Positions 32-47,718 are shown, counted from the stretch's first letter. The stretch is DNA of 51,135 bases from Deltaproteobacteria bacterium (GCA_024275075.1 JAJRZU010000066.1:1-51135), one strand, 5' to 3'. Numbers and translations: made by a program. The notes: a model not told the origin generated them from the sequence alone.

Positions 32-781
32 TTATATACCGCTGCCATCGAGATAGTTCTCAAAAAACTTGTCGTTTTGCACTTTCTTCTTCTTCTTTTC
101 CGGCGACTCCTCTTCGGTGACGATTGCGTTAAGCTCCTTGTGCTCCGCATAAAGCTTACCCACCTTAAGTTCGAGGTCACGCACCTGCTCTAACAGGCAC
201 GATATCGCCCGTGCCTCGGGGTCTGGCAGCTTGTCGTGATCTAAATCGACTCTGTCGTGATGTTCGCCGTCCCGAAAAACTACCCTGCCGGGTACGCCGA
301 CGATCGTTGAATTCGGGGGCACCTCCTTTACGACGACAGAACCCGCTCCCACCATGGAGCCGCTCCCGATCTCGAAAGGCCCGAGTATCTTCGCGCCGGT
401 ACCGATGACGACGTTACCATGGATAGTCGGGTGCCTCTTCACCTTCTCGGTGCTTGTGCCGCCAAGCGTGACGCCGTGGTACATAGTGACGTTGTCGCCG
501 ACCTCCGCCGTCTCACCGATGACGACGCCCATGCCGTGATCGATGAACACCCTACTACCGATCTTTGCCGCCGGATGTATCTAGATACCGGTCAGAAACC
601 GCGCCAAATGCGACAATAGCCGCGCGGTCAGGTAAAGATTGTGAGTCCACAAAAAGTGCGCGAACCGGTGTATGACGATGGCGTGCAGCCCAGGGTAGCA
701 CAAAAGCACCTCCAGCTTGCTGCGCGCGGCCGGATCACGCTCAAAGACTGTCTTGATATCTTCCTTTATCCTGCGAAACAT
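32..781 (-). CDS. cysE: serine O-acetyltransferase (CysE), interrupted by a single in-frame TAG at 581..583
   Basis: ORFs 581..781 (N-terminal helical part) and 32..550 (hexapeptide beta-helix part) share one frame, 750 nt in total. Together they read ..[51 protein letters not shown].., the hallmark SAT core. The TAG sits where characterised CysE proteins have Glu/Asp (G-[IV]-[ED]-I-H-P). Confidence 0.85.
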
Positions 782-905
782 TTTTATCTCTTTCTCATAG
801 TTCTGATATTAGTCATATAATATTATTACCAAAAAAGCAAGCCAAAATAACATCGCCGCCGGCGCTGACATAACCACTTTGTTGCCACAATATGGCATTA
901 TATAA

Positions 906-934
906 TTGACAAAAGAGATATGTTGTGATAATAA
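906..934 (+). promoter_or_regulatory. sigma70-like promoter upstream of tRNA-Leu
   Basis: TTGACA (906-911), 17-nt spacer, TAATAA (929-934). The tRNA starts about 34 nt downstream. Confidence 0.4.
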
Positions 935-967
935 ATACCGGTTCGTTGGTTTCTCACATCCATCCAT

Positions 968-1054
968 GCCGGAGTGGTGAAATTGGTAGACGCACGGGAC
1001 TCAAAATCCCGCGGGGGCAACCCCGTGCCGGTTCGATTCCGGCCTCCGGCACCA
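968..1054 (+). tRNA. tRNA-Leu (anticodon CAA), class II, CCA encoded
   Basis: Cloverleaf readable by hand: acceptor GCCGGAG/CTCCGGC, anticodon stem CGGGA/TCCCG with loop CT-CAA-AA, long variable arm CGGGGGCAACCCCG, T arm GCCGG-TTCGATT-CCGGC, then A-CCA. Confidence 0.95.
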
Positions 1055-1153
1055 CAAGCGTGACGCTTGACCCAGCCAGCCTACAGGAACCCTCCGTGAG
1101 GGCATATCCATTGATATAGCTTTGGTTTAAGCGTTATATTTAATCCAATCCAT

Positions 1154-1193
1154 ATCGAGACACACAAAAAACAAAGCGGGGGTGTGTCTCGAT
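1154..1193. repeat. perfect 12-bp inverted repeat (hairpin) with 16-nt loop
   Basis: atcgagacacac (1154-1165) pairs with gtgtgtctcgat (1182-1193). No T-run follows on either strand, so it is not a classical terminator. Confidence 0.6.
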
Positions 1194-1319
1194 GGGTAAC
1201 AGGAATAATTACAAGGGATTAATCAGTGATGAGGAGTTCAAATCAGCACCGAGGTTAATTATGCGTTATCAAGAAAAGAATCCGATCTTGCAACGGGAAT
1301 GTACAGAAGAGCTTGGGCA

Positions 1320-1439
1320 TGTTGCCCAATACAATTTAAGGGGCTCTGCCCCTTCGCCTCCGTTGTCGGTACCCCATAATATCAACAACTTACAATGTAG
1401 TTTTTTTTGAAAATATGTATTTTATTCTATTTGGCAACA
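1320..1439. mobile_element. MITE-like 120-bp repeat, copy A
   Basis: Terminal inverted repeats tgttgcccaat (1320-1330) and atttggcaaca (1429-1439, rc tgttgccaaat). Internal blocks ccccttcgcctccg..gtcg and gaaaatatg..ctatttggcaacag are shared with copies at 2620-2728 and 2808-2927. Confidence 0.6.
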
Positions 1440-1634
1440 GTCTCTTCATAGTCATTCAATCTATTTGAAAAATTAGAACATGTCAAGCACAAGCATGACG
1501 CCGCTTAATGCTAAGTTGTAACGGATACTGTGAATTAGATTCAAAGAAGCGTTTCAAAATAAGCACGAAAATGATTTCGGTGGAGTTTCCTGAAAAATAT
1601 GGCTGCGTAAGTGTCGGTAATGTTTACTAATCAA

Positions 1635-1711
<77 letters not shown>

Positions 1712-1787
1712 TCATAAGAATCAGGGGAGTTTTATATCACTGATTATTTAGTTTGTCAAGTAGGGGTTTTCTTTTCACTGATAGTCA

Positions 1788-2504
1788 ATGTCTATTTTAG
1801 GGGGGAGAGAGCACGATTTCCGAGTTCAGGAGGCGCAACAAAAAAGCGCTGAAAAAGGTGAGCAGGCAGTGCGCGAAAATGTGCGTAAAGCTTGGGTTGA
1901 TCGAGGGGAATACGCTTTTTGTCGATGGCACGAAGGTTCGCGGCAGTGCTTCGATCCACAAAACGCTGACGAAAAAAGACGCGGACAAGTTGCTCAGGAA
2001 GCTGAACAAGCGTATCGACGCGATGTTAAACGAGTGCGATGCCGTCGACGAAATCGAGTCTGGTAGCGGCTCTTACGTGAAAATGAGCAAGGAACTCGCC
2101 AAAACTGAAAAGCTCAAAGCGAAGGTTGAGGGGGCTCTAAAAGAGCTTGAAGAGGGCGAAACAGGCGTCGAAGAAGGAGTCCGGCGAGTTTGACAAGAGC
2201 AATTTCATGTACGATAAAGATCGGGATGTTTACGTTTGTCCAGCGGGGAAAGAGCTTAAGTTTAAGGGAGTTAGATGCGACAGGGCGAACCACAGAGTTT
2301 ACCGGTCAGGCGGTCTACGGGTGGCGTAAGGAGAAGGTGGAACATCCATTCGGGCACCTGAAGCGGAATCTGGGGGTGCAGTCATTTTTGCTTCGAGGTA
2401 TAGACGGGGTTCGGGCGGAGATGTCGCTACTCGCGACCTGCTTTAACATCCGAAGATTGATAACGCTCCTCGGGATGGACGGGTTCGCGGCGATGATGGC
2501 ATAA
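1788..2504 (+). pseudogene. IS1182/IS5-like DDE transposase remnant (frameshifted, internally deleted)
   Basis: Three overlapping frames carry transposase fragments: ..LGLIEGNTLFVDGTKVRGSASIHK.., ..FMYDKDRDVYVCPAGKELKF.. and the typical C-terminus ..VEHPFGHLKRNLGVQSFLLRGIDGVRAEMSLLATCFNIRRL... The catalytic core between them is missing. Confidence 0.7.
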
Positions 2505-2619
2505 AAGCCGAAGGGGAGGCTCAGCGCGCACTTTTTTGCCCGATTATTTGTGAAAATTAATAATACCGGCAAATAACAGATAAAAAAATGTGCAAATAAA
2601 ATTATTTAAGAAACTGGGG

Positions 2620-2728: not shown

Positions 2729-2807
2729 CCCCCTGAAGCAGTGAATCACCAGCCCGCAAAAAAAATGTAACAAAACCGTTTAATTGCAATATACTATTTA
2801 AGGGGCA

Positions 2808-2927: not shown

Positions 2928-2951
2928 GTCCCTTAAGGCCTCTGCATGACC

Positions 2952-4056: not shown

Positions 4057-4731
4057 ATGAGAAAATGTAATGAGATAGAGCCATTGATATATGGTTATAT
4101 AACCGGTGATATCCTCTCTTAGCAAAGGAGGGTGTTAGACGATCATATCAAAGAGTGTGACGAGTGCCTTGATGAGATAATGAGGCTCCAGCGCCTTGAT
4201 ATGAACCTGACGGAGCTGAAGGATGTGGAGGCCGGCCTCTCTGAGGATCTTACTGGTGCGATATTAAGCGAACTGCCGGCGAACATCAAAAGGGCAGGCC
4301 GCGGATACGGTCATCACTTCTTCTCAGCGACGACACTGCTCTCCACGGTTACGGTGGTGCTTGCGGTGCTGGTATTCATCCTCGCCGGCAAGGTGGATCA
4401 GATATCGATCACCTCGAAGGCGCCGAAACCGAAATCGGTGAAGATAATGTTCTTCTCAGAGAAGGCGCAGAATGTATCGTTAGTCGGTGATTTTAACGCC
4501 TGGGGCGTAGACCCCCTATTATTATCAAAGGTAAATGGCAATACCTGGGAAGCGGAAGTGAAGCTGGCGCCGGGTATGTACCAATATAATTTAGTGGTTG
4601 ATGGTAAGAAGTGGATTGCTAACCCGAACTCAAAATCATTAGTGCCAGATGGATTTGGCGGTACGAATTCAGTAGTGATAGTCAATGATAACGGGGGGAA
4701 ACAAATTGAGAGTGTCGGTAAGCAGATTTAA
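4057..4731 (+). CDS. zf-HC2 anti-sigma factor with one TM helix and a C-terminal CBM48/AMPK-beta-like beta-sandwich; in-frame TAG at 4120..4122
   Basis: ATG 4057 gives MRKCNEIEPLIYGYITGDILS-TAG-QRRVLDDHIKECDECLDEI.., the usual anti-sigma N-terminus with H-x3-C-x2-C, in frame with ORF 4132..4731. TM segment is FFSATTLLSTVTVVLAVLVFILAG. The C-terminus VSLVGDFNAWG..W..V.LAPGMYQYNLVVDGKKWIANP is typical of CBM48/E_set. Confidence 0.8.
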
Positions 4732-4763
4732 TAGAGTATTAATTTAAAAAAAGCTTTGATTTT

Positions 4764-5457: not shown

Positions 5458-8241
5458 ATGAAAAGGAGCGGACCTATGACAGGGGAAGTGAAGCCGGGTA
5501 TGATCACAAAAAAGTGGATTGCCTTTAGATGTTTTTTTCTTTTTCTTTTGACTATCTCCATTCTTATTATTTCAGGTCAAAAAAACTCATTTGCTGCGGG
5601 TATTGTCGGTTCAAAGCATGATTTAGTAGCTATTGATTACCCTTACGGTGTATGTACGGAGTGTCACACCCCGCACTATGCCAACGATATAAGGCTGTGG
5701 CCGAGGGTTTCAAATGCCGCGACTAACCCGGCGGCAATAACAACGCCTGACACAGCCGCTGTCTCAAAGATGTGCCTTGATTGTCATGCGTATGATGTTG
5801 TCACTGATCTGCCGGCGCTACCAGGACCCGGTGGGATGTGGGCATGGGGGATTACGTGGCCGGTACCCAGACAGCTGTTTGATAACGCTGGCAACTGGAT
5901 CTACAAGAAGCATGGCGGTAAAACGTACAAAGACTGCGTCAGGTGCCATACCCATGCGACCGGTTTCGGCCTGCCGCCAATAGACCCCCCAACCTCTGCA
6001 ACATGTTACGACTGTCATGTGTGGGATGATACAACGAATAATGATGATATCGATAATTACACATTCGGTACGCAGGCGACAGTGAATTTTTTAGACAGAG
6101 CGATGATAGATGAAGTTCAGTGGACAACCGGCGGTCATCGCGTACCGGCAGTCGACACTTTGCCTGAGACCTCAAGGCGCGCCGCGCAAAGCGGACCTGA
6201 GTTAGGTTGTGTGGATACGGGCGGCGCTATTCCCAATGGCTGCCATGATGATGCGATACTTCACGGAACGGCAGGTAATCCGTTTAGATTAAAAGTAGTC
6301 GGTGGCGCTACCGGCGCTGATATAATCTCGAATTTGTGTGGTCAGACTATCTGCCATCCGCCGCCGGCAGCGGGTGGAGTGCATATGCTTCATGCCGACC
6401 CGGCGCCAGGCCCTGCAAACCTTTATGAAAAAGGCGTATGTTCAGACTGCCACGATCCGCATGGCGACAGCTCCAATGTAGACGCTTCTTTGGTTAGCGT
6501 CCCGGACATTAATATAAACGCGGCGATGATGCAGCGGGAGGTTGTATGGCGGGACAGGTGGACAGCCGGCGCTTTTGGCGACCCGACAGACACGAACCCG
6601 GTAGTCGTTCCCGCGGATGATAAATTAGAACCGATAACACGATTTCATATAACAGGCGGTAATGACGCTTTAAGCTGGGAGATGGCGGATTATGTCAAGG
6701 ACAGCACATCTTTCAGCGGGGTATGTGAAGCGTGCCATACCGCTGACGGCACAAGCGGGGCCATAACAAGATTCTTCAGGAGAAAAGACGCTGACGGGGA
6801 CACTCAGTTGCCATTTCATGACCTGACCGGCACCAATGCGTGCGCATCATGTCACGAGCACGTGAAAGGGTTTCAGAAGCCAGACATTTGCACGTGTATA
6901 GATAACCCGACAACCGGTACAGCCGGCTGTCACACCGGCGTTGACGCTCAGTTTGCTACCGTTGTAGGCGGAGTTTCATCAGGGGCACGCCAGCATGATA
7001 TAGCTTATGACCCTGTTAACAACCCCAAAGGCAACAACCTGTTAGAGGAGGATTGTGAGAACGTAGACTGCCTTAAGTGCCATGACCTTGATACAAACAG
7101 TAACCATACCGACGGAACGGTGTATTTGGACGCGATCGATACAAAGGCTGGTACCGTGCCGCTTCAGTCTCCTTCAGCATATGCCGATGCGGCGCCCGAG
7201 GGCACCGGCACCATTCAGAGCATAAACGATACTGTGTGGGGTAACATACGCGATGATGGCGGGTACACTACCGGGCAGTGGTGCAGAAACTGTCACGATA
7301 TCGACGGACCGCCCGCCGCGGCGTCAACCAACCTTAATGGTAACGCCGTAGCGCCACCGAACGTAGAGTCTGATTCATCCGGCGCCGCACGCTTCACTAC
7401 GACTGGTCATGGCGCGACATCAGGTACAAACTTCCCGCGGGTCGCACCTAACAATACTGCCGGCAGGACGGCATGTACAGGCTGCCACAACTATCATGGT
7501 AGCGACAACATTCGCATGATCCAGAGAGCCGCGTGGAACGGCAGCGCATGGCAGAAGTGGAACGGTGTAAATGTACCAGAGCCGCTGGACACATCTGCGG
7601 CGGATTACCTGTACAACGGAGACGATGTTAATATCTCGAGCGTTGAACTGTTCTGTCTGGAATCGTGTCATGTTGTTGATTCATTCTCATGGACGACGCC
7701 GCAGCCGCTTTCTTTGGACTTTAGTGATGTAATCACGGCAAGAGGCGGCGCAACGACGAAAAGAGCCCACTATGTCTTTGACTACGTAGGCGGTAACCTT
7801 GGCGCTGATTATGATGCGCACAATGACATTACTTACTATTTCAGCGGCAAAGCGGTAGGGTTTGTGCTCGGCGGTACCGCGGGAACACCGTGGAACGATC
7901 TTGATACCTCTGATAGCAATCCTGCCACCCAGAACCATACATACATCAATGACAGCTCTAAGGGAGAGGCGCAAAAGTTTGTGAACATTATCACCTCGAC
8001 ACCTTCGCCAGGAACTATCAACAGCATATTCAAGGCGATTTGGTACAATGATGGCGTGGATAAGGGCAGAGCGATATGTGTGACATGTCACGATCCGCAC
8101 GGTTCTAATGTTGATGCTACATGGGGATTACCAAACAAGGTTCCTGCCAGCACTGATGATAACATGCTCAGAGGCGAATGGATCACTGGTACGGCATGGG
8201 GAGCGGATGCTGATGAGCCGTGTGATTCATGCCATAAGTAA
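5458..8241 (+). CDS. multihaem c-type cytochrome A (12 CxxCH plus 4 variant motifs)
   Basis: Signal/anchor WIAFRCFFLFLLTISILIISG..SFA. There are 12 canonical CxxCH, several as CxxCHDPHG (doubled-CXXCH type). Alternative start ATG 5476 follows AAGGAG. The C-terminal ~745 aa are paralogous to the end of 15945..19994. Confidence 0.9.
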   Translation: MKRSGPMTGEVKPGMITKKWIAFRCFFLFLLTISILIISGQKNSFAAGIVGSKHDLVAIDYPYGVCTECHTPHYANDIRLWPRVSNAATNPAAITTPDTAAVSKMCLDCHAYDVVTDLPALPGPGGMWAWGITWPVPRQLFDNAGNWIYKKHGGKTYKDCVRCHTHATGFGLPPIDPPTSATCYDCHVWDDTTNNDDIDNYTFGTQATVNFLDRAMIDEVQWTTGGHRVPAVDTLPETSRRAAQSGPELGCVDTGGAIPNGCHDDAILHGTAGNPFRLKVVGGATGADIISNLCGQTICHPPPAAGGVHMLHADPAPGPANLYEKGVCSDCHDPHGDSSNVDASLVSVPDININAAMMQREVVWRDRWTAGAFGDPTDTNPVVVPADDKLEPITRFHITGGNDALSWEMADYVKDSTSFSGVCEACHTADGTSGAITRFFRRKDADGDTQLPFHDLTGTNACASCHEHVKGFQKPDICTCIDNPTTGTAGCHTGVDAQFATVVGGVSSGARQHDIAYDPVNNPKGNNLLEEDCENVDCLKCHDLDTNSNHTDGTVYLDAIDTKAGTVPLQSPSAYADAAPEGTGTIQSINDTVWGNIRDDGGYTTGQWCRNCHDIDGPPAAASTNLNGNAVAPPNVESDSSGAARFTTTGHGATSGTNFPRVAPNNTAGRTACTGCHNYHGSDNIRMIQRAAWNGSAWQKWNGVNVPEPLDTSAADYLYNGDDVNISSVELFCLESCHVVDSFSWTTPQPLSLDFSDVITARGGATTKRAHYVFDYVGGNLGADYDAHNDITYYFSGKAVGFVLGGTAGTPWNDLDTSDSNPATQNHTYINDSSKGEAQKFVNIITSTPSPGTINSIFKAIWYNDGVDKGRAICVTCHDPHGSNVDATWGLPNKVPASTDDNMLRGEWITGTAWGADADEPCDSCHK

Positions 8242-9611: not shown

Positions 9612-12600
9612 ATGAGTTTACGGAAAAGTGGAAGGTTTTTTGTTTATTTTATGTTTGTAGCTGTTTTATGTCTGGGCGGCTATCTGGTCTACGATAATGC
9701 GCAGGCGGACCATTCAACAGGCCGCGCGTGTTATAGTTGCCATACGCTTACAACCGCAGGAGCAGAGCAGACAACGTCTTCTATCCTTACTGGGGCGGCT
9801 CAGGGTGTTCAGAACACTGAGTTGTGCGAGGTGTGTCATACCCAGAAGGAACTGACGGAATTTAACCCCGCGGGGACAGTTTCAAGGCATCCTGTCCATG
9901 TTACGACTAACCAGGCGGGTTATCTCTCAACCCGCGGCGACAACTCGCCGTACCAGGCAGTTAACGCTAATAACTCCATAGAATGCTTTAACTGTCATAA
10001 CTCCAAGCAGGTTACAAAAAGGGGTGACACTACACCAAGCTCTGACGCGAATGCGTACCCTGACCATACATGGGAGCAGATAGACTATCCCGGGCAGGTT
10101 AGTCAGGTCGCACCATGGGACTATCTTGAAAACCATCTCTATGGTACTGAAGGCGGGGTTACAGCCTTAGGCACCTTTTACGATGATTTAAACTATAACG
10201 CCTGTTACGGAGGATCTCCTATACTCGCGAAAAGTACCGCGAACGAGACGATCAACACAGGGCCTACTACTACAAACCCTGTCTTTCCAGGTTGTCATGG
10301 TACGATTGTCGACTCCAAGGGTAAAACAATTCAAGACTATATGACTGTCAATCAGGGAGGAAGAAAAGGAAGCGCCACGATGGGACACGCTATATCCGCT
10401 GACGGCGCTATTATCTCCTGCCGGACATGCCACGACCCGCACGGTAGTACAAGCGCTATCAGGCTGTACACAGGGCCGAACTATGAGTCACAAAACTTTA
10501 ACTCGGTCAACGCGATTTGTAGGGACTGCCACGGATACGATACCGGTACCGGTGGTGCAGCCCCATCGCCAATTACTATTTATGTAAACAACGCAGGCAC
10601 CGCGGAGACAAGGGTTGTTACCGCGCCGGCGCCGCCATGGGTAGGACGTCCATATCTTAACATCCCGCACGGCCTTGAAAGTAACATAAACTCCCCTATA
10701 GAAGGTCAGGCAAATAAATATAATAACGAGGCATGTTGGGAGTGCCACTCTGTTCACCAGCCTCCACCGCCTCCTGATGATGTATCCGTAGAATGTGAGG
10801 TATGTCACGTATGGGATCCGACTACTGACAACGATGATGTCGATAACTATACATTCGGCACCGGTGACTACTCTGACAAAGCTATGATAGACGCGACTCA
10901 GTGGACGACTGCTGGTCACGGCGTACCAGCGGGCAACTTCATGCCGATGACTAATGCAAGATGGCCGTCTAACAATGCTTTCGGCCCTGAACTGAGCTGT
11001 GCGGATACGGGCACGACAGATGGTTGTCACGATCCGAACGTTGCTCACGGTACCGCAACCAACCCGTTCAGGCTTATGGGTAAGACCGGTGTCGGTACAT
11101 ACACTAACACAATTACAAAAGAAGATCATCAAACAGGAGGGGTACAGGCAAACGGACCTGATGGCGTATGTTACAGGACAGACGGTCCCGCATGTCATAA
11201 CCCGGATATAGACACTGACAGACACGACTTTAATGCCGCTTATGCCGGCGGCGTCTGCTTTGACTGCCACGATCCGCATGGCGACAGCTCTAACGCCGAC
11301 CCGACCACAACGCCGATCCCAGACACTAACATAAACGCGGCGATGATCCAAAGAATGCCCGTCGGTGGTGAATGGGTGGCGAATACCCATTATGGAAGGT
11401 TCCCTGACTCAGGCGGAGCTTTTGGTATCGTTACCGCTGCAAACTCATATCCATCAGCAAGGTATGTCGCGACAAACTCAAAAAGCGACTACTACAAGGA
11501 TAATCTTAACTACAGTGGTATATGCGAGACGTGCCATACCGCTGACGGTCCTGGCGCTGTATCTGATGGCGGCAGTATAACAAATTATTTTAGAAGAGAC
11601 AACGGCGACGGCGACGACCTTTCGCTGGTGAATTATCATGATCCTATAGCGACGCCCGAGCAGTGCGCGCTAAAATGCCACTTACACTCAAAGAAATTTG
11701 AGCCCGGCGGCAAGTGTATCGAGTGCCACGCTTCACCGCAGGGTTCTCATCCGGCGATTGTAACGCTGGACTTAACCTCCGGTCAGATAGAGCTTACAGC
11801 CGACGGTGCGAACGGCGCTATGTCCAAGCACGTTGGCGGCTCAACGACGGGTATCACATCGTTTGAATGTGTTATCTGTCACTTAGAAGGCCAGATCGTA
11901 GCCGGTAATCCAGAGCCGAACAGCACTTACCATAAAAACGGTACAGTTGAGCCAAGAGATCAAGCCTCCGGCGGCGAGATCGCGGCCCTTGGCGCTGGCG
12001 GTAGCTACACGCCAACGCTCGACGCGCGAGGCTATGCTACAAACGCGTACTTGTTGAACGCGAACTTCTGCGGCGGATGCCACGACGCTAACGGCGCCGA
12101 ATGGTGGGCTACAAAGGGCGGAAACGCGTTGCAACCATTCAACAACTCAGCTATGTCCGATGCTGACGGCGTCCCCGGTGCGAACGATACGACCACGGTG
12201 CCTGACATCTATTCAAGATATAATAACGTAGGGCTTGGTGAGAACACCGGCGGCACAGGTGACCTCGAGGGTAAGAGCTCGGCTATGTACAGTAAATTCA
12301 CCACGGCGAATTATAATGTTGTGCCGCAGATAATGAAAGCTTATTCTCCGCACGGCAACCCGTCTACTAATGTAACAAAATCAGAGTTTCAGGGTGAGAC
12401 CCCGGGCGTTAATACATTTGTAACGAATCCCGTGGCGTGTCTTAACTGCCACCCCGCGCACGGTTCTGATATCACTGCTTCCGGGGAAACCGGTTATAAT
12501 CAATTAGGCGCGAACGGCGGCGCTATGGTGCGTACCGCTGATCCTTCATTATGCTGGGATTGTCACAGCAAACCAGTTGCGAACGTGTGGGACTTCTACG

Positions 12601-15600
12601 GCGATACTGACAGGGTCAGCGCGAACCCGCTTCAGTGGAGCGTTGGCGGCGGCAACTGGACAAGAGGCACAGGTCCCTTTAACTATAAGGGCGGATACCA
12701 GATGCGAAGTATACATACCCCGGCTAACGCCGGCGGCGTCATCGCATGTGGGGTATGTCACGACCCGCACGGTATCGATACCGCGAACACAGCTAATGAA
12801 TACTTCCTGCTCCCTTCTCTAAGGGTGGGGGCGGGCGACCCGGGCGGATGGGTTACATCCCCTTATAAAGAGGACAGGCCGGGTAACAAAACCGGCTCCG
12901 TAGCGCCTGAAGACCCGACACAGGTCAATGGCGAGCCGTACAAGCTTGCAGGGAAAGGCTGGAACGGCCCTACGTATGCAGACTGGTACGATGGTAACGG
13001 CGCTCCGACTAACCAGAACAAAGGTACAGGCCCAAGGGTGGAGCCTATGACTTCCGGCGGTAGCTTCGCCTACTGTAACCCGCCGGAAATCGGCGGCGGC
13101 TACGGTGACGGCGCTGACGCCACTTATGGCGGCAACGGTCATCAGGGATTCTTCTTGAACGACAACACATTTGGGACAGACGGTATCATGTTGTTTGCCG
13201 GCAAGGCGGGGGATAACTTTGAGCAGGCGCCTGTTACAGTCAATCCGCAGGCAGCGTTTGAAGCTGACGGCGGCGCCACAGGCGTATTCACATTAAACGC
13301 TTTCAGCGGCTTTTGCAAGAACTGCCATTCAGCTACAGACGCTCTTGGCATAGAATATGGATCATGGACGGGACACCACTCGGTATTCGGCGTCACTCCA
13401 TATAACGACGTGTATAATCAGTCGATCGCTCAGTATGTTCACGGCGGTCCGCAGGGTAAAGAGGAAGAGATAAGGCTTCTGGCTACAAACGAGGTGGGTA
13501 GGTCATCTGGCGCCGGCATGAAGTGGGCGATAACCCAGGGTAACTTCACTGTAGGCGCTGAAATGAACTGGCAGATGGAGGCTAACGGGAATAAGGTCAA
13601 CTATCATGAATTTACGTGTTCTAAGTGTCACACTCCTCACTCTTCTGTTATCGACAGGCTGATGAGGACAAACTGTCTGTCAGGCGGTAACACGAGCGAT
13701 GACTCGACCTCAACGCCGGGCTCTGGCACCAACGGTCCGTCGGTTATCGACACGACCGTAGGTAACTGGGTTGATACGGAAACGACGAATAGAGCGGGCT
13801 ATACATATCCGCATCCGTATTTTGCCGCTGTTACCCCTACAGTCGAAGCGTTTACGATGCACTGCCACAACAGCTTTATGTATGTAAACGGCACCGACCC
13901 GGGCTGGGGTATGGGGCAAACAGGGCAAAACGCGGATGGCGTGACCATAACTTATAATGGCGGCTGGCAGAAACTAAGCGCCAACGGAAACGACCCGGGC
14001 GGATGCGCTACGATCGCGTGTCACTCGTTCTTCCCGAACTTTGCGATCGCGACTGCCGAGGGGAGTCCTAACTCGATTCAAAGATCGGGCGCTCACAGGG
14101 TGCATCTGGACTTGGCTTTTGACAGCACGTATACATCAGGAGCTGATCCTGAGTCATTCTATGATTCAGACGGCGACGGCGTGCAGGACAAGTTCGGCCT
14201 TGGCGACCTTGCTCAGCTTGACTGCGATTACTGCCATGCGTATGGGGCAGGCAGTACACCTCCGCGAGATAATGCAAACGCCGCTCCTCACAGGAACGGT
14301 ACTATAGAATTTGCCGACGCGGGTAACCCTGACTTGACGGGCACGACTATCTGCGCTAACTGCCATGCGGATGACGCGGCGGCGAAAGCTAACTGGGGCG
14401 GTAACTCCAACGATGACTACACGCGGCTGGCATGTACAAGCTGTCATTCACAGACCTCGCCGGCGTGGACTATTTTCGGTAATGTCAGAGGCGCGAACGT
14501 GAATGGCGACGGCAGTAACTACGGCTTCTTCATCAATGGCCACGGTTTGGACAGCGGCAGCTTATATGGATGGGATGCGACATCACTCGGCGCCAACTTC
14601 TTAGGTGACCCGGGTACTGATACTGACTCTGACAGCATCGGTGATGACGGTTGTATGTATTGTCATGATATAACATCGCCGCATATAGACGCTAACACTG
14701 CAAACGGCTCGCAGGGCTTCAGGTTTGAGTCAGGTAACTTCCCGAGCACAGCGTCAGTTTCCGCTGTATGCCTTGACTGTCACGAAAGAGCTGACGGACC
14801 TGGCGGCGGCGCGACAAACGCCAGACTGGCGACAGATTCCACCGACCTGATACTTGACCACGACTCCGCGTCGATGTCAGCGGTTCCTGTCAGTTACACA
14901 AGGCTGAACAGTTCAATAACATGGGGTTTTGCGCCTGACTGTAACGATTGTCACGACCTGCACGGCAGTACAAACAGGATGATGATCGGTTCAAACCATA
15001 CGGCAGCGGTTCCACCGGCGCCAGACGCTGTTAACGCGAGGATAACAGACCAGAACGAAGCCGCGTGGACACCTAACAATATAATCGTCGATTACAAGAA
15101 CCCCTTGGCTTTTGAATTAGGTAAGACTACAGCGCCGATAGGCCCTTGTATCACATGCCATAGAAATGGCGCGCCTAACGGTACTGATCATAACAACCAG
15201 AACTCGGTTAATAACGATCACACGCATGGCGGTCCGACAAGTACAGTAACAAGTCCTGTGGTCTGTACGGATTGTCATAAGCATAAGAAGGCGTTCGCTC
15301 CTTCCGCCTGCGACGAATGTCACGGCTGGCCTCCAGGGTACAATGACCCTGGCAAAACGGGAGAGGCAGTAGGTTCTATAGAGCAGCCAACTCTTATAAC
15401 GGCGCCTGAAGCTGGTGCGCATCTATTCCATACCAGGCAGAACGTAGGCACTACCGCTACGCCTGGACAACCGAAACTTGATACCGCATGTGCGGAGCAG
15501 GGCTGTCACGTTCGGATCAGTTCTGGCGCGGCAACGGGTCATAGTACCCCTGACGACCAGACGGCGGAAGTCGATTTTGATATCATAAACGACTATGCGA

Positions 15601-15872: not shown

Positions 15873-15944
15873 GGTTATACAGTAGTATGTGGCGATTGTC
15901 ACAGCGCGACCAACCCTGCGTCACAGCCTCACCAGACCCATGCG

Positions 15945-20755: not shown

Positions 20756-20784
20756 TGATAATGACACATTACGTTTTATCTTAT

Positions 20785-20813
20785 AAGGGGCTTTCAACTT
20801 AGAGGAGCCCCTT
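20785..20813. terminator. hairpin between convergent genes (possible bidirectional terminator)
   Basis: aaggggct (20785-20792) pairs with agcccctt (20806-20813), 13-nt loop, weak T-tracts. It abuts the stop (20816..20818) of the extended TPR frame. Confidence 0.45.
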
Positions 20814-20944
20814 TATTATATCTTCTTTTTTAACTCTTTGACCTTATTTCTTATACTTTTATTCTTTGCGGCTTCTTTGTTATACTTCAAGTAAGATTCA
20901 TAACTTTTGAGCGCGCCCTCGTCATCATCGATCTTAAGGTAGAT

Positions 20945-22375: not shown

Positions 22376-22894
22376 TTTTCCACCTGAAATTAAATTTAAC
22401 AGGCCAGCCTGTTTTTTATGGGGGTTAATTTCCCGCATCTTGTTACTATAAGATTAATCCAGATATGTGGGAGTAGTCCATTAATTTATGAAAAGCTATC
22501 AAAAAACGGTGAATAAATCAAGGAAATAAGTTTAATGAACTAAGTTAATGAACTTTCTCGCGGCAAGCTGACGAGAACCTGCCCTAACCCGCGGGGAATC
22601 AAGCCCATAGATAAAAACCGGTGCGCCTGTTCAGCAAGAATGAAAATAGTTTACAAAAGTCTTGAAACTTTTATTTTATATTTTAGTATTTAGGTATTAT
22701 AAAGTGATTAATAATTTTCTTGTTGATAAATTCATCTTAATACTTTATAAAAAGGGGGTTGCATCAAAATAACTGCGTTTTCTCAAGGAGGAGGCATGAT
22801 GCCTCAGTTATTAAGGGCTTGGTATAGAGGTTGTTAAGGTATAAATAAACTTAATGAGTTATTCTTGACTTATTTCATTAAAAGAGGAGGGCTT

Positions 22895-35471: not shown

Positions 35472-35560
35472 CTAAACAGATGAATGGTAACTAATAGTTG
35501 CCAGGAAAGTATTTTATGATGAAAGAGTTATTTATAGACATAGAAAAAGGAGATAAACCG

Positions 35561-36577
35561 ATGAAAAAGGTTATCGCAAAAGCGCCGCTCAATAAGATGC
35601 TGATATTGCTCATGGCATTAATGTTTGCCGCGTCAACTGCATTCGGCTATGAGGTGATGAATGAAGCCTTCTCGCAAAGCAATAAGGGGGCGAATGTCGC
35701 AGGCGGTGAGTTCATCAAACTAAGTGACGGTCAGGAGGGCTGGCGGGCTACAACTTCGACAGAAGCCTATAACGGCGAAGAACCGAACTATATGGTTTAT
35801 GATATTAAAAATATCAAGGGCTTGCAAGAGGGCACGATAGAGTTCTTCGTACAGCGAAGCCGTGAAGGCGGAGTCGTTTATGAGCGCAGTGGCAATCCAG
35901 AGACCTACGATACATTGTTCGAGCTGTTAGCCCCTTCCCACAACACTGTATTCAGCTTGATGATCATGTGGGATTACGCGAATAACGCTAATGAAAGCGC
36001 GCTCTTGTTTAATCACTCTCAACTGACGAGCGGTAGCGGCATTCACCGTGTATGGCCTGAAGTGGTGCCTATGGGATTCAAGCCTGAAATCGGTGATTCA
36101 GTTCACGTCGCGATTACATTCGGCGCAACGCCTTCAGACAACAAGGTATATATAAACGGCGCTGAGATCGGCAGGTCAGAGAATTTACTGCCGGGGGTTA
36201 CTGTGGGAACCGCTGACGGGAGCTTCGCAGATTACATCACAGCTTCGGCTTCGATGAGAATCGGTATCGAGACAGGGGCCCCGGACAACTACCCCGGTGG
36301 ATCGTCCATGCTTTACCGCTCTGTATTAAGCAGTATTGTCGTTGATGATGAGATAAAGACAAGCTTTGCACTTGACGGCTTCGCGTATGCCGGTATCCCT
36401 GCCGGACTGAAAGCTGATTATGCTGACTCTTCAGTATCATTGACCTGGGGCGGGGCGCAGTCATCTGATGTCGTCGGTTATAATGTTTATAAGAAGGCAG
36501 TGAACGAGAGTACTTATACAAAGTTAAACGATACAGAAGTAAGTGATTCAGGTTTTAGCGATGGTGACGTAACATAA
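35561..36577 (+). CDS. secreted LamG/concanavalin-like plus FN3 protein, N-terminal part; stop TAA 36575..36577 is in frame with the next ORF
   Basis: RBS aaaggaga precedes ATG 35561. Signal is MLILLMALMFAASTAFG. LamG-like blocks are EGTIEFFVQRS and SVHVAITFGATPSDNKVYINGAEIG. An FN3-like unit is cut by the stop: ..VVGYNVYKK..FSDGDVT-TAA-GLSYDYVVKGVNSDGMES.. Confidence 0.8.
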   Translation: MKKVIAKAPLNKMLILLMALMFAASTAFGYEVMNEAFSQSNKGANVAGGEFIKLSDGQEGWRATTSTEAYNGEEPNYMVYDIKNIKGLQEGTIEFFVQRSREGGVVYERSGNPETYDTLFELLAPSHNTVFSLMIMWDYANNANESALLFNHSQLTSGSGIHRVWPEVVPMGFKPEIGDSVHVAITFGATPSDNKVYINGAEIGRSENLLPGVTVGTADGSFADYITASASMRIGIETGAPDNYPGGSSMLYRSVLSSIVVDDEIKTSFALDGFAYAGIPAGLKADYADSSVSLTWGGAQSSDVVGYNVYKKAVNESTYTKLNDTEVSDSGFSDGDVT

Positions 36578-36622
36578 GGGTTAAGCTATGATTATGTTGT
36601 AAAAGGCGTAAACAGTGACGGC

Positions 36623-39412
36623 ATGGAGTCAAACGCGTCCAACGTCGCCTCAATAACAGTCATTTCAGAGTTCTATAGAGTGACGGAGACTTCAAAGGAT
36701 TATGACCCCAAGAACCTCACCGGCGCTTATTCTGACGGTGCGATTGTCCTTAATTGGGGCGCGCCGGCCGGCGTTACTTTAGCCGGATATAATGTATACA
36801 GGCGGGAAGGCGAAGGGAGCGCAATGTTCACGAAATTGACAAGCGACCCGATCGCTGCGACAACTTACAGCGATTCCGCTATTACTTCTGGCGGTGTATA
36901 CTACTATTCAGTGACGTCAGTCAGCGCAGACGGCAAAGAGGGACGGTACCCGTCTGAGATCAGAGTAGAGGCGGCAAACGTTGCGATAAGCTCGATCTCC
37001 ATCGATCCTTCAAGGGCAGTAAGATCCGGTGAAGAGGTAACGATCACTGCTTTGGGTACATCAGGTAATACCGGCGCTTTTTCAGTCGCCGGAGTAGTTA
37101 GCGGCGCGGGGCTTAGCGAGACCTCAGCAGGCGTATATTACGGTACGTTTACGGCAGGTGATTCTGTTGACAGCGCGTCAGTCACCGTCAGTCTTGGCGG
37201 TGTGACGCAGACGGCGGCATCGACGGTCACAATAGACAATGACGCTCCTTATAAGATCGTCGGCCTTGACATCAAGAATGACTGGGAAGCTGAGATAAAC
37301 ATCGACTGGCAACCTGCGACAGACTCTGATTTCAATCACTATAATGTATACAGGAGCACAGAAGATATAACTACGCTCGCGGGCGTAACGCCGGTCGCAG
37401 TGATCGACAGCGCGGACACATCAGATTACTGGGATCAAAGCGTGACACCGAACCTGGTATATTTCTACGCCGTCGCCGCAGTCGATAATGCCGGTAACGT
37501 TGGCGATATGTCAGACGTTGTCTCGGCAAGGGTGCTCGCGGACACATCATTACCGGTTGTCTATAGTATAAGTGACAATTCTGCCGGTGTAACATTAAGA
37601 GATGGTGACGTTTTAGAGGTATTAGTAGAGGGAGAATCAGACTGTGAAGCATCATTCAGCGTTGGTTCTGTTGTAGTGGATGTTGCATTGACGGAAGACA
37701 GCAGGGTCGGTAGCTATACCGGCAGCTATATTGTGCAGGCATCTGATATAGTAAATGATTTTATTGTTGTAAAGCTTGCTGACTCCTCTGGTAACGAGTC
37801 TACTTTTGCGAGTGAATATAAAGTAAATATCGACGGGGGCACACAGACCGATACAGCGCCGCCTGCAATTGACAGCATTTCTGAGAACTCATGGTCGATT
37901 GCCGGTTTCTCAGGTAAATTGGTTGCCGGCGATCTGCTGACCGTTGACCTCACAGGTGAGGCGGGCGGTACGGCGTATTTTGATATCACAGGAGTAGCCG
38001 AGAAAGTCAGAATGACAGAGAGCGCGGATGAGCCGGGTACATATACCGGTACATATACGATACAAGACGGTGATTATGCACAAGCTGCTTCAGTTACCGG
38101 TTCTTTGGCGGACGCGGCGGGTAATGTAACGTCATTGACAGCGTCAAGCACGTTTGATGTCGATACGACAATAAACATCGAAGTGACCCCGAGCCAGAGC
38201 GTAGTACCTGCTGACGAGAGTACAAGCGTCGATGTTGTGGCGAAAGCGACAGACCTGAACGGTGATGCCGTATCAGGCCATAATATCAAGTTCACGCTGA
38301 CAACTACAGATGAATACACAGGTATCGTCGGTTCGGGCAGATACACCGAATTTGATGATATCGTTGGCGGCAGTTTGCGCGTCGAGTGGCGTGGCGAGAC
38401 AGACGCATTTGGTGAGGTAAGCGTATCCTACAAGTCCGGTTTTGCGGCCAAGACAGCGATGATCCTCGCGAAAGACTTAAATTCCGGTGACATAGGGGTT
38501 GGTTATATTACATCATTTGTTTCAGCAAGCGTCGATATTACGTTGCTTCAGCAGATGTCATCAAGGCGTTTAAGGACGATAGGGCTTGGCGTATACATAT
38601 CAGTTACCGCTACGCCTGACAAATTGACGGCAGATGGTGAGAGCAAGTCAAGGATCAAAGCGAGAGTGACGGATGTTACCGGTCAACCGGTTTCAGGTGA
38701 GAGAATCGTGTTTAGTATATCAAGTGATAACGGTACATTGGTTGCCCTTGATTATACTACTGACAACAGGGGCCTTGCCGAAGCTGTTTACACCGCGGGT
38801 AAGAAGATCGGTACTGTGGTTGTCACAGCGCTGGATACGACAGCAGGTATAAGCGGCTCGACGATGATCGTCTTGATGAGTGACGCACCGGCTAATGTAT
38901 ACATCTCTGCATCACCGACGACACTGCCGGCTGACAGCAGAAGCAGAGCGACGATCGACATAAAAGTGAGTGATATTAATGATAACCCGAACCAGGGCGC
39001 CATTATCGAGTATGAGATAACAAAAGGCGGCGGTTCTCTGGACAGTAACTCTAACGATACAGACCGAAACGGTGAAGCGAAGAATGGGTACAGGGCGGGA
39101 GCTTCCGCCGGTACTGTTACGATCCAGGCGAAGGTAACTTCAAGGATACCATCGACACAAGAGGTCAGCAGAGCCAAAGGTACAGTATTTATCGGTAAGG
39201 TGTTCGATGACTTTGAAGATGGTGAAGTTACGAAGTGGTTAAAAGATGTTGGTGATGATATTGCGAAAGGTGAAGTTATCGCGAAGATCTCGACTGATAT
39301 GGGAGAGTTTGATGTAGTAGCAAGGCAGGCAGGAAAGCTCTACTCGATCAAGAAGTATGAAGATGATGACTTTACAATTGGTGAGACATTAGCTATTATT
39401 GAAGTAGAATAG
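36623..39412 (+). CDS. FN3 x2-3, Ig-like (Big_1/invasin-type) repeats and C-terminal lipoyl-like domain; continuation of 35561..36577
   Basis: Same frame as 35498/35561 (offset 1125), with no RBS. FN3 signatures are LAGYNVYRREG..GGVYYYSVTSVSADGKEG and FNHYNVYRST..LVYFYAVAAVDNAGNVG. Big_1-like units are TATPDKLTADGESKSRIKARVTDVTGQPVSGERIVFS and SASPTTLPADSRSRATIDIKVSD. Ends in TAG, then TAT, then TAA. Confidence 0.8.
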   Translation: MESNASNVASITVISEFYRVTETSKDYDPKNLTGAYSDGAIVLNWGAPAGVTLAGYNVYRREGEGSAMFTKLTSDPIAATTYSDSAITSGGVYYYSVTSVSADGKEGRYPSEIRVEAANVAISSISIDPSRAVRSGEEVTITALGTSGNTGAFSVAGVVSGAGLSETSAGVYYGTFTAGDSVDSASVTVSLGGVTQTAASTVTIDNDAPYKIVGLDIKNDWEAEINIDWQPATDSDFNHYNVYRSTEDITTLAGVTPVAVIDSADTSDYWDQSVTPNLVYFYAVAAVDNAGNVGDMSDVVSARVLADTSLPVVYSISDNSAGVTLRDGDVLEVLVEGESDCEASFSVGSVVVDVALTEDSRVGSYTGSYIVQASDIVNDFIVVKLADSSGNESTFASEYKVNIDGGTQTDTAPPAIDSISENSWSIAGFSGKLVAGDLLTVDLTGEAGGTAYFDITGVAEKVRMTESADEPGTYTGTYTIQDGDYAQAASVTGSLADAAGNVTSLTASSTFDVDTTINIEVTPSQSVVPADESTSVDVVAKATDLNGDAVSGHNIKFTLTTTDEYTGIVGSGRYTEFDDIVGGSLRVEWRGETDAFGEVSVSYKSGFAAKTAMILAKDLNSGDIGVGYITSFVSASVDITLLQQMSSRRLRTIGLGVYISVTATPDKLTADGESKSRIKARVTDVTGQPVSGERIVFSISSDNGTLVALDYTTDNRGLAEAVYTAGKKIGTVVVTALDTTAGISGSTMIVLMSDAPANVYISASPTTLPADSRSRATIDIKVSDINDNPNQGAIIEYEITKGGGSLDSNSNDTDRNGEAKNGYRAGASAGTVTIQAKVTSRIPSTQEVSRAKGTVFIGKVFDDFEDGEVTKWLKDVGDDIAKGEVIAKISTDMGEFDVVARQAGKLYSIKKYEDDDFTIGETLAIIEVE

Positions 39413-41414: not shown

Positions 41415-41469
41415 TGAATCCATGAAGCGATTAAGAATATTAAAGTTTTTTAATTTTATAAAAAAAACA

Positions 41470-44728: not shown

Positions 44729-44738
44729 GGGGGAGAAC

Positions 44739-46175
44739 ATGCGAAAATTAGCGACAAGAGTTCCTTTGTTAGTACTATGTCTTATTCTTGGTGCGTTATT
44801 GATAGCTTCTTGTAATGATTCACAAGATGCTGTTATCAACAGCTCAGGGGGGGATGACTCTGCTTTGGCAATAACTGATATGGATAGTGATGGTTACGAT
44901 AGTACCGTTGATTGCAACGATGATGATCCTACCGTACACCCTGGCGCGACTGAAATGCTTGGTGACGGGGTTGACAGTAACTGTGATGAGGTCGGGAGTG
45001 ATGTTGACGCTGATAATGACGGATACAGCGCATCTGAGGGCGATTGCAATGACAATGATCCTACTATCGGTAATTATGCCCAGGAAGTATGTGGTGATGG
45101 TATAGATCAGAACTGTGATGGTTATGACCTTTTATGTACAGAAGCTGATGCCGCAAATGAGGACAACGACTTTGACGGATATACTCCAGCTACTGGTGAT
45201 TGCGATGACAATGACCCTGATATAAATCCAGGCGCGACGGATACTTGTGAGGATGGCATTGACCAGAACTGTGATGGTATCGACCCTGCCTGCGATAATG
45301 ATGGCGATGGCTACCCGGTTAATCAGGACTGTGATGACAATGATCCTACAATCCACACTGGCGCACCTGAAAATTGCTATGATGGTATTGACAGAAATTG
45401 TGACGGGTTGCTTTTAGACTGTAACGTTGACTTGGATGCTGACGGGTACAGTGTATCCGCGGGGGATTGCAATGACCTGAACCCGAAAATAAATCCTGGG
45501 GTAATAGAGGGGAGAAACGCACAGGGCAAGTTAGAGAATTGTGGTGATATAGTTGATAACGATTGTGACAGCTATATAGACTTAGAGGAATCATCTTGTA
45601 ATGAGCCCGAATTCAGTTCAACAGCCATAACTTCGACAGCTTGTATTGAAGGCATTTCCCCTGATGGCACTACGAAGGATATATGTGACACATACTCTGT
45701 CAAGTTTACAGCCAATACATTGTCAAAAGGACCTGATAACACCACCTATACGCTGTATGTTGACTGGGCGATAGTATTTAGGGAGTACCACGTAATGAAC
45801 GTTTTAGAAGGTGGGGTGCCAAGCTATTTCGCAGTTGAGTGGACAGGTGTTGAAGCTCATCATCGCTACGACGAGAGAGACCCATACACAATACAGAACC
45901 CGTATGCGTATCCTGACTTTTTGATAGACACAAACGCGGATGGAGTGCCTGAGCCGCAGTATTATGCATGCCCGGCTACATCAGGTCCTGGTGATTATCC
46001 TGTATGTTATAGTGGTTCAGGGTCAGCTAAAACAATTTTGTTATATTCTAATACATACATGAACGGTGCCGCTACTGAGCAGCTTTACTTGATACCGTTT
46101 TCTTGGCATGTTAGAGCGACGGATGCGCCTGGAAGATGGATAGACGCGGCCGGCTATTTTGATGGTGAGTATTAA
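44739..46175 (+). CDS. lipoprotein with five MopE-type Cys/Asp-rich putative metal-binding repeats
   Basis: RBS aaggggga. Lipobox is LLIASC. There are five repeats of D-x-D-x-DGY....DC[ND]D.[DN]P.I.PGA.[ED].C.DGIDQNCDG. The C-terminal ~180 aa have no motif I recognise. Confidence 0.75.
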   Translation: MRKLATRVPLLVLCLILGALLIASCNDSQDAVINSSGGDDSALAITDMDSDGYDSTVDCNDDDPTVHPGATEMLGDGVDSNCDEVGSDVDADNDGYSASEGDCNDNDPTIGNYAQEVCGDGIDQNCDGYDLLCTEADAANEDNDFDGYTPATGDCDDNDPDINPGATDTCEDGIDQNCDGIDPACDNDGDGYPVNQDCDDNDPTIHTGAPENCYDGIDRNCDGLLLDCNVDLDADGYSVSAGDCNDLNPKINPGVIEGRNAQGKLENCGDIVDNDCDSYIDLEESSCNEPEFSSTAITSTACIEGISPDGTTKDICDTYSVKFTANTLSKGPDNTTYTLYVDWAIVFREYHVMNVLEGGVPSYFAVEWTGVEAHHRYDERDPYTIQNPYAYPDFLIDTNADGVPEPQYYACPATSGPGDYPVCYSGSGSAKTILLYSNTYMNGAATEQLYLIPFSWHVRATDAPGRWIDAAGYFDGEY

Positions 46176-46215
46176 AATTTAATAATCTCTGATTTGAAAA
46201 TTTTTTCTAAATGTA

Positions 46216-47718
46216 TTGAAAAAAGCTAAGTGGGGGAGTTTTATCTTGAATCCCAATAAAACCAGGGTTCGGCGGATTTTATATATAATTTGGTTTTTTT
46301 TTACAATAGCGGGTTTTACGGTGTTAAAGAGCAATGATTGTTTTGCTGCGGCTATTGACGCTTCAATTGATTTCTCTTATGATACTGGTGAAACTACGAC
46401 CACAACTTCTGGTACAAGTACGAATGAGAGCGTTAATAACTCATATATGTTGAGTTACAAGGAAAAAATAAATATGGCGCTGGATTTACAATCTGAATTT
46501 AAGATAGACACCACAAAATCAAAAGCTTCTGACCAGTATACAGCAACAACATTTGATCCTGAGATGACTGTTGGAGTCGCCAGCACCCAATGGATCCTTG
46601 ATATGGGAGTAAAAGAAGGGATTACTGACTCAGAAGACCCTAATGCAAAAAAGAAAACAACTTTTGATTACTATTTTGATTTTGAGTTGAAGCCCGAAGT
46701 AATTATTCCAGAGATGCAACTTAAATTAAGTCAAACAGAGAGTTATGAGCCCGAAACCACTGATACCTTAAATGCCTCTGTGGAGTTTTCCACAGACTAT
46801 GAGATTGATTTTATGGGAATAGGGCTTGATTTTAATTATAATAAAGCTATAACGGACGATAGGTTGAAGCGGGATTCTGATACCTTAGACAAAACTTATG
46901 ATTATTCTTTATCCTTAAAACATGATTTTACAAACACAATTAATTATTCTTTCGATTATGCCGCAGATTCTGCACACGGCGTTACATATTTTGATGACGG
47001 TGAAATAAAGTCTGAATCCAGTTCAACGTCGTATGGCATTAAGAATAGCCTGGATTATAGCGTTTTTGAAAAGACTCAGTTTGGGGTCGCCAATGATTAT
47101 TCTGATTCAAAGGATACAATCACCAATATAACGGATGTCTCAAAGTCTTCTTCTGCAAATGTTTCTCAAGATGTATATGACTGGATATCATTAAAATTTG
47201 ATTACGGAAAAAATTCAACTGAAACATTAGATTCTCCAAATGATAGCTGGACTATTACAGATTCTTATACATCTGGCGCTACTGTGAAGCCGAACAAGTT
47301 TTTTGATCTTGCAGTTGACACTAATCAGTCAAAGTCTATTGATAACGAAAATGATATTACTCAAGCGAAAGACATAAACGCTTCATGGACAAATGAACTT
47401 ACAGAAAGTTTAAAGTTAAGCTATGATGTATCAAATAAGAAGGCGTATACTGATGGTTCGCTTGATTCTGATGATGATTCAATGCAATTTCAAGTGGACA
47501 TTAAAATCGATACAGAGATTAATCTTAAAATCACACCAAGTTACGGGTATGATAAGGAGCGTGATCTGATATTAGGTTATGATACTTCAAAAGAGAGCCT
47601 TGATGTAGAGGTGGAGTATACAATCAACCCTACGAGGAAGATGGAAATAAAAGTGAATCACTCTTATAGCAGAAGCGAGAATCATGATACGTCGGTGATT
47701 GAAAGAACTGACGATTAA
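46216..47718 (+). CDS. outer-membrane beta-barrel-like protein, N-terminal part; stop TAA 47716..47718 is in frame with the next ORF
   Basis: Signal is ILYIIWFFFTIAGFTVLKSNDCFA (alternative start TTG 46246 after ggggag). The sequence is D/S/T/N/Y-rich with alternating hydrophobic residues, typical of amphipathic beta strands (YDYSLSLKHDF, INYSFDYAADS). Confidence 0.65.
   Translation: MKKAKWGSFILNPNKTRVRRILYIIWFFFTIAGFTVLKSNDCFAAAIDASIDFSYDTGETTTTTSGTSTNESVNNSYMLSYKEKINMALDLQSEFKIDTTKSKASDQYTATTFDPEMTVGVASTQWILDMGVKEGITDSEDPNAKKKTTFDYYFDFELKPEVIIPEMQLKLSQTESYEPETTDTLNASVEFSTDYEIDFMGIGLDFNYNKAITDDRLKRDSDTLDKTYDYSLSLKHDFTNTINYSFDYAADSAHGVTYFDDGEIKSESSSTSYGIKNSLDYSVFEKTQFGVANDYSDSKDTITNITDVSKSSSANVSQDVYDWISLKFDYGKNSTETLDSPNDSWTITDSYTSGATVKPNKFFDLAVDTNQSKSIDNENDITQAKDINASWTNELTESLKLSYDVSNKKAYTDGSLDSDDDSMQFQVDIKIDTEINLKITPSYGYDKERDLILGYDTSKESLDVEVEYTINPTRKMEIKVNHSYSRSENHDTSVIERTDD

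Follow-up and report, generated by a model that had tools for sequence, protein, structure and literature searches.

Why should six otherwise intact genes on a single contig each be broken by exactly one in-frame stop codon? The contig, 51,135 nucleotides (nt) from Deltaproteobacteria bacterium (GCA_024275075.1, JAJRZU010000066.1:1-51135), was analysed over its whole length and is called the window below; the genes are cysE (serine O-acetyltransferase), an anti-sigma factor, a giant multihaem c-type cytochrome, a TPR protein, a LamG-like surface protein and a predicted beta-barrel outer-membrane protein (OMP). Our findings support, with high confidence, a model in which the six stops are point substitutions and reflect neither recoding nor gene boundaries. 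Each would be an independent single-base change from G/C to A/T in an otherwise intact, standard-code gene. An initial annotation of this DNA had concluded that no single explanation fits the set; one does, in that a single G/C-to-A/T substitution covers all six sites (Glu at three, Trp at one and probably Ser at two). The same annotation had kept pseudogenes and consensus errors among its options, where both deserve to stay, and between them we lean slightly toward damage or consensus error over real alleles of a mutator or relaxed lineage.

Six Single Genes with One Internal Stop Each

The window holds 21 protein genes, two tRNAs and one broken insertion sequence (IS) transposase, and as a genome region it is neither AT-rich (45-50% GC) nor reduced. 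Six of the 21 protein genes (29%, or one in 3.5) are interrupted, and codon-by-codon translation reproduced the six in-frame stops of the initial annotation, position and strand alike. On the minus strand, cysE (32-781, 249 codons, ending in TAA) is interrupted by a TAG at 581-583, codon 67, an invariant Glu position. The anti-sigma factor (4057-4731, plus strand, 224 codons, ending TAA TAG) combines zf-HC2, a transmembrane (TM) segment and a CBM48-like domain, and carries a TAG at 4120-4122, codon 22, within the zinc-finger. The cytochrome, on the plus strand at 9612-19994 (3460 codons, ending in TAA), has a TGA at 15870-15872, codon 2087, where a GSu_C4xC__C2xCH haem motif has its conserved Trp; it is one c-type cytochrome of 3460 amino acids (aa) with 45 CxxCH motifs, and the label "cytochrome B/C" first given to it should be dropped. 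In the TPR protein (20816-22438, minus strand, ending TAA TAA; 540 codons counted from the first ATG, with orthologues and the database gene model placing the start at 22375), a TAA at 20945-20947, codon 498, occupies a Glu position of the last TPR repeat. The LamG-like/FN3/Big_1/biotin-lipoyl surface protein (35498-39412, plus strand, with a probable start at 35561, ending TAG TAT TAA) has its TAA at 36575-36577, in the first FN3-like repeat, and the OMP (46216-48057, plus strand, 613 codons, ending ...DF TGA TAA) has one at 47716-47718, codon 501, in the C-terminal fifth.

Orthologous loci were drawn from three other assemblies. Two Joint Genome Institute (JGI) metagenome contigs, L002 and L003, carry the cytochrome, the redoxin, the TPR protein and further cytochromes. 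The metagenome-assembled genome (MAG) "Deltaproteobacteria bacterium Dive96_bin3.187", from a study of a Southwest Indian Ridge vent chimney (PMC9769843), provides two more loci: L006 (LamG, hyp603, FG-GAP, MopE-like, OMP, lipoprotein and SurA), reached through P0249, and L007 (sigma, anti-sigma, hyp200, cytochrome and propeller), reached through an alignment of paralogous and orthologous cytochromes. None of these is close. The database search returned, for any gene of the window, no relative nearer than about 76% protein identity; in the cluster look-up all clusters of window proteins were singletons, without relatives at 90% identity or more, and exact look-ups of the window proteins on other contigs gave no match. 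Scanning genomes with the propeller protein gave no relative, searching for homologues of the FG-GAP protein turned up so many repeat proteins that no orthologue emerged, and a metagenome scan with the hyp640 alignment gave, among the matches listed, only L005, which is 29% identical and was not used.

All six genes are uninterrupted single open reading frames (ORFs) in these relatives, with sense codons (Glu, Trp, Ser) at the stop sites; neither stops nor splits occur there, and no internal stops were seen in the relatives at all. The frame stays open beyond every stop in the window, for 182 codons in cysE (chance expectation, (61/64)^n, 1e-4), 202 in the anti-sigma factor (6e-5), 1373 in the cytochrome (2e-29), 42 in the TPR protein (0.13), 944 in LamG (2e-20) and 112 in the OMP (5e-3). 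Pfam domains span three of the six stops: zf-HC2 (residues 4-37), TPR_12/TPR_7 and GSu_C4xC__C2xCH. As the orthologues are continuous at all six sites, each stop interrupts one gene and marks no gene boundary, and the earlier description of open, homologous sequence beyond each stop is borne out.

The architecture of the anti-sigma factor is unusual, joining an N-terminal zf-HC2 and one TM segment to a C-terminal CBM48/AMPK1_CBM-like carbohydrate-binding domain, and it is kept in the MAG orthologue (58% identity). The C-terminus of the LamG/FN3/Big_1 protein (39200-39409) resembles a biotin/lipoyl-attachment domain (PF00364, E=4e-9); such a domain is odd for a secreted adhesin-like protein and is present in the LamG orthologue too.

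Could the stops be true ends of separately expressed ORF pairs, or the TGA and TAGs selenocysteine (Sec) and pyrrolysine (Pyl) codons? An AAGGAGG (4124-4131) precedes GTG 4132 in the anti-sigma gene, ATG or GTG codons lie downstream of four other stops, and Deltaproteobacteria often use Sec. Yet this Shine-Dalgarno (SD) match codes for QRR and abuts the GTG at a spacing of 0, the orthologues are single ORFs throughout, domains cross the stops, and the downstream pieces of exported proteins would presumably have no signal peptides. No usable SD-plus-start was found downstream of the six stops. The initial annotation had stated that the downstream pieces lack a ribosome-binding site, which is right in essence; it had passed over the AAGGAGG and an AGAGGAG 18 nt upstream of ATG 47773 in the OMP. 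For practical purposes the orthologue alignments refute this whole reading, and we give it next to no credence. As regards Sec and Pyl in particular, the TGA aligns with Trp and not with Cys or Sec, and the orthologue residues at the two TAGs are Glu and Ser, not Lys or Pyl; the 66 nt after the cytochrome TGA hold no SECIS-like (selenocysteine insertion sequence) hairpin (z = -1.4) and no Rfam element.

What Each Stop Replaces

The stop column of cysE holds Glu in 12 of 12 homologues, and because the two relatives read at the DNA level use GAG, the change is best described as GAG>TAG (G>T). Six TPR orthologues (433-521 aa) read through the corresponding site, five with Glu and one with Asp; L002 and L003 have GAA there, which argues for GAA>TAA (G>T). 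LamG has one orthologue, on L006 (at least 1234 aa), which is unbroken and has Glu (GAG) at the site, so that GAA>TAA (G>T) is again the change indicated. The cytochrome orthologues on L002 (at least 2915 aa) and L003 (at least 1487 aa) run across the stop, and both have a Trp (TGG) that the alignment sets next to the TGA. Trp also recurs in the paralogous CxxxxCH...W...CxxCH motifs of the same protein, and PF09698 scores best across the stop with Trp (22.0 bits, vs 14-19 bits for Cys, Arg, Gly, Ser and Leu). Judged on these alignments, TGG>TGA (G>A) is certain for the cytochrome, and so is the set of three G>T changes (GAR>TAR) and one G>A that it completes.

The other two sites are read from one orthologue each. 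That of the anti-sigma factor, in MAG Dive96_bin3.187, is an uninterrupted protein of 230 aa with Ser (TCC) at the stop site; RsiW (5wuq) aligns through the stop with Lys in that column, and the ancestral codon is uncertain between TCG, GAG and AAG. The OMP orthologue on L006, uninterrupted over 608 aa and ending ...KF, has Ser (TCG), and TCA>TAA (C>A) is the probable change. Both stops are probably one step from the orthologue residue via C>A, or via G>T from a Glu ancestor.

Because the orthologues encode Glu, Trp and Ser at these positions, every stop can be placed a single G/C-to-A/T step from a sense codon. Under uniform substitution and the codon usage of the window, such steps are 44% of the nonsense paths; P is 0.007 for all six sites and 0.037 for the four certain ones. 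No sequence motif shared around the changed bases, of the kind that a methylation-motif error might involve, is apparent at the six sites. In-silico editing, with codons replaced arbitrarily, was also considered and is unlikely, each of the six stops being one step from a codon of the orthologue residue.

Termination and Decoding

Are the three stop codons still read as stops? Terminators of the 20 complete genes are 17 TAA (85%), two TGA and one TAG, in line with the initial annotation, which had genuine ends as mostly TAA and described the tandem TAA arrangements correctly; the 21st protein gene is a partial NHL gene (50375-51135), itself intact. All three codons end genes at C-termini that match those of orthologues: TAA in cysE and the TPR protein, among others, TGA in hyp200 (...FLKQK) and the OMP (terminal Phe), and TAG in LamG. 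It follows that no codon has been reassigned, and the earlier view that TAG/TGA reassignment is unable to explain the set is upheld on the same ground. The relatives likewise use TAA (71%), TAG and TGA. Nor do stop codons fall regularly at one conserved residue in the window: they occupy three of 795 Glu and one of 186 Trp positions, and two sites align with Ser.

Programmed readthrough, which the initial annotation had listed as an option, gains no support. The base following the stop is A, C, G, A, G and T at the six sites, the 66 nt downstream of each give z = -2.3, -0.6, -1.4, -0.7, +0.4 and +0.7, with no significant or common fold, and the stop codons terminate genes normally. An Rfam scan of the window found nothing beyond the two tRNAs.

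A partial suppression might instead resemble the nuclear code of the eukaryote Blastocrithidia: a suppressor derived from tRNA-Glu would read UAA and UAG as Glu, UGA would be read as Trp, most genes would still end at UAA, and the interrupted genes would stay functional, nonsense at Glu and Trp codons being nearly neutral. Four of the six stops do stand at Glu (TAR) or Trp (TGA) and the other two at variable positions, a pattern with P=0.010 under uniform substitution, but with an unremarkable P=0.18 if only G/C-to-A/T changes occur. The predominance of TAA terminators fits, and so do the absence of frameshifts and the undecayed downstream sequence, both of which suppression predicts. Tandem stops are also in excess: in nine of the 20 genes another in-frame stop follows within two codons (3.6 expected, P=0.005), compared with eight of 58 in the orthologous loci of the relatives (Fisher P=0.009), although this threshold was set after the data had been seen and n is small. 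Examples downstream of terminators lie at 4732-4734, 20756-20764, 20813-20815, 41415-41417 and 48058-48060. Against suppression stand the termination of genes by all three codons at orthologue-matching ends, the very few Glu and Trp positions that carry a stop, the lack of common context or downstream structure, and the relatives without internal stops. The only two tRNAs of the window, tRNA-Leu(CAA) and tRNA-Arg(TCT), are both ordinary and intact. We know of no bacterium that decodes UAA as sense. An early, low-usage code of this type in a free-living, vent-type deltaproteobacterium therefore seems to us improbable.

Lesion Pattern and Decay

If the stops are substitutions in genes of the standard code, they might belong to ordinary old pseudogenes in an operon-scale region that is slowly decaying. 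The interruption of the genes relative to intact orthologues is what this predicts, and an IS remnant lies nearby. The state of the genes speaks otherwise. Each has exactly one stop, with no second stop, deletion or frameshift, and none of the 21 cellular genes is frameshifted despite more than 70 homopolymers of at least 6 nt. Identity to the orthologues is at least as high downstream of the stop as upstream in three of the six genes and similar in the others: 68% vs 51% in LamG, 53% vs 42% in the OMP, and 54% in the 42-codon tail of the TPR protein, equal to the part upstream. All haem motifs shared with the orthologues are kept. Among 10,262 mycobacterial pseudogenes, frameshifts make up 66.5% and internal stops 16.1% (PMC9676053), and at normal indel:substitution ratios frameshifts would be expected to be at least as common as nonsense. 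Under ordinary decay, the probability of six nonsense lesions with zero frameshifts lies between 5e-5 and 0.016, according to which ratio is assumed. Slow decay is thus a very improbable account of the six genes.

The window does contain an older casualty. The initial annotation had reported no frameshifts, which holds for the 21 cellular genes and fails for the IS transposase remnant (1788-2504, plus strand), broken into pieces that lie in three different frames. As this remnant shows frame breaks, the six stops appear to reflect a process distinct from old decay, substitution-only and directed at G/C.

Point substitution in otherwise intact genes accounts for the remaining features of the pattern. 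The stops fall at 10, 27, 28, 60, 82 and 92% along their genes, and this scatter argues that purifying selection has not filtered them. Since any gene position is hit, a biosynthetic gene is included, and second lesions and indels are lacking, the lesions would be very young and unselected; the pattern as a whole points to a recent, substitution-only process. Only 4.1% of random substitutions yield a stop (about 8% for pure G:C>T:A), so that roughly 60-150 unselected substitutions in 45.6 kb would be needed to produce six.

Sequence Record or Living Lineage

Where did these substitutions occur? The stops belong to the deposited sequence, since the public database stores the pieces of the interrupted genes as separate proteins (P0009, P0121, P0406 and P0407). 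As candidate chemistry, an oxidised or depurinated G could have been read as T, or a deaminated C as T, and the lesions could have sat on the sequenced template or in a lineage without repair of 8-oxoguanine (8-oxoG). In the record-level version, damage to a scarce or single amplified template, or consensus errors at low depth, would have produced the stops, and the real genes would be intact. G>T is the classic 8-oxoG artefact of sample preparation. We favour an artefact because one gene per 3.5 is hit, cysE at codon 67 included, which is implausible in a viable cell; extended to the genome, about 30% of genes would be knocked out, a load hard to reconcile with viability. The lack of any mark of selection and of secondary decay points the same way. 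Our preference, held tentatively, is accordingly for changes in the deposited sequence over changes in the living lineage.

Several points weigh against it. With zero Ns, correct homopolymers and intact tRNAs, the contig looks like a short-read or polished consensus, for which a substitution error of 0.1-0.3% is far above normal. Oxidation artefacts are usually present at low fraction, and reach the consensus only with very low depth or a single amplified template. A bias from G/C to A/T is universal in spontaneous mutation, for which reason the spectrum does not separate artefact from real mutation. The collateral missense expected of so many substitutions did not show either, in a low-power check for which only one to three broken residues were expected over CxxCH motifs and invariant cysE columns: the roughly 70 CxxCH motifs shared with orthologues are all undamaged (about 1-2 broken ones expected), and the only fully conserved columns at which cysE differs are those of the stop and of V160I.

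The stops may instead be real and very recent alleles of the sampled population, from a base-substitution mutator or a lineage under relaxed selection, an alternative that we rate as possible and take seriously without adopting it. In a mutator, loss of 8-oxoG repair of the MutY, MutM or MutT type would raise G:C>T:A without raising indels; relaxed selection could stem from a bottleneck, from polyploid cells that complement broken copies, or from a clone that is dying out, and the six genes would on this view be newly arisen pseudogenes or hypomorphs. In its favour, an assembly usually gives the majority allele, and this contig is otherwise of good quality. The spectrum, with three to five G:C>T:A changes, is that of an oxidative-repair mutator, which would account for nonsense without frameshifts; the undecayed downstream sequence suits young lesions, and the IS pseudogene attests that gene decay occurs in this genome. 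What real alleles would demand is considerable: six of 21 genes, with hits as early as codon 67 of cysE and codon 22 of the anti-sigma factor, imply hundreds of knock-outs per genome and unselected divergence of about 0.1-0.3%, at positions without sign of purifying selection, and, with all protein clusters singletons, no same-species sequence from elsewhere attests to their persistence.

Gene Neighbourhood

Positions 1-31, just past the cysE terminator, contain two direct copies of ATTTCCCCCGTACA, and the contig terminates within the repeat. The IS remnant sits between the two tRNA genes and the sigma factor gene; of its pieces only the last ORF matches the DDE_Tnp_1_6 C-terminus (profile 67-125/125), and three copies of an intergenic repeat of about 130 nt, 63-85% identical, flank it at approximately 1322-1451, 2639-2739 and 2810-2939.

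From 5458 to 35471 the window encodes five multihaem c-type cytochromes with 94 CxxCH motifs overall (45 in one protein), interleaved with the redoxin, the TPR protein, a beta-propeller and a 1199-aa coiled-coil/propeller protein. Synteny of this cluster extends to the Southwest Indian Ridge vent MAG (L007) and the two JGI metagenomes (L002 and L003), and the cluster is probably an extracellular electron-transfer module. Within it a 927-aa cytochrome (5458-8241) is paralogous to the C-terminal third of the 3460-aa cytochrome (17202-19994), at 68% protein identity; in nucleotides the two share tracts that are 76-94% identical and always offset by about 11.75 kb. This similarity suggests duplication or gene conversion inside the cluster; at such nucleotide identity the two paralogues are too diverged for their comparison to detect rare errors.

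The FG-GAP/beta-helix protein and the OMP have as their neighbour a 478-aa protein (44739-46175) with at least four MopE-type putative metal-binding motifs (PF11617, E=2e-38).

Significance and Comparison with Known Systems

For annotation, the consequence is that the window should carry six single genes with an internal stop, among them an extracytoplasmic-function (ECF) anti-sigma factor and a 45-haem cytochrome, and not twelve ORFs. Lesions that are nonsense only and G/C-to-A/T only, in one gene of every three or four, are a useful warning sign, indicating either consensus error from a damaged template or low depth, or an oxidative-repair mutator occurring naturally at an iron-rich vent. 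Interest lies chiefly in quality control and annotation, unless reads prove the stops fixed. Were suppression true, the Glu/Trp placement, the zero frameshifts, the downstream conservation and the tandem stops would all be explained; with the stops fixed in the reads and the proteins full-length, a bacterium would for the first time be seen to decode all three stop codons ambiguously, a major finding that the evidence at hand makes unlikely.

Set beside known systems, the window shares traits with several. In the nonstop nuclear code of Blastocrithidia (PMC12153298), UAR stands for Glu and UGA for Trp, and UAA is also a stop. The residues replaced here (Glu, Glu, Glu and Trp) and the TAA-dominated termination recall that code; the difference is that Blastocrithidia is a eukaryote with abundant in-frame stops, whereas here they amount to 0.04% of codons, with TAG and TGA still serving as terminators at conserved gene ends. 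The bacterial reassignments of TGA to Trp (table 4) or Gly (table 25), and the use of Sec or Pyl, are matched by the TGA at a conserved Trp. In contrast to those systems, it is one TGA among 186 Trp positions, no recoding element accompanies it, and TGA ends two genes at orthologue-matching C-termini.

Nonsense pseudogenes as called by annotation pipelines are alike in form, a recognisable gene with one in-frame stop set against intact orthologues. Natural decay, however, is dominated by frameshifts and truncations, and its lesions accumulate (PMC9676053), whereas the window has six nonsense changes, zero cellular frameshifts, one lesion per gene and undecayed sequence downstream. The likeness to oxidative or deamination damage, or to a mutator of the MutY/MutM type, is of another sort: these are substitution-only and run from G/C to A/T, as do the three certain and up to five G:C>T:A changes and the one G:C>A:T found here, although the implied rate of 0.1-0.3% is much above what is usual for either. 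The phenomenon is of an already known kind.

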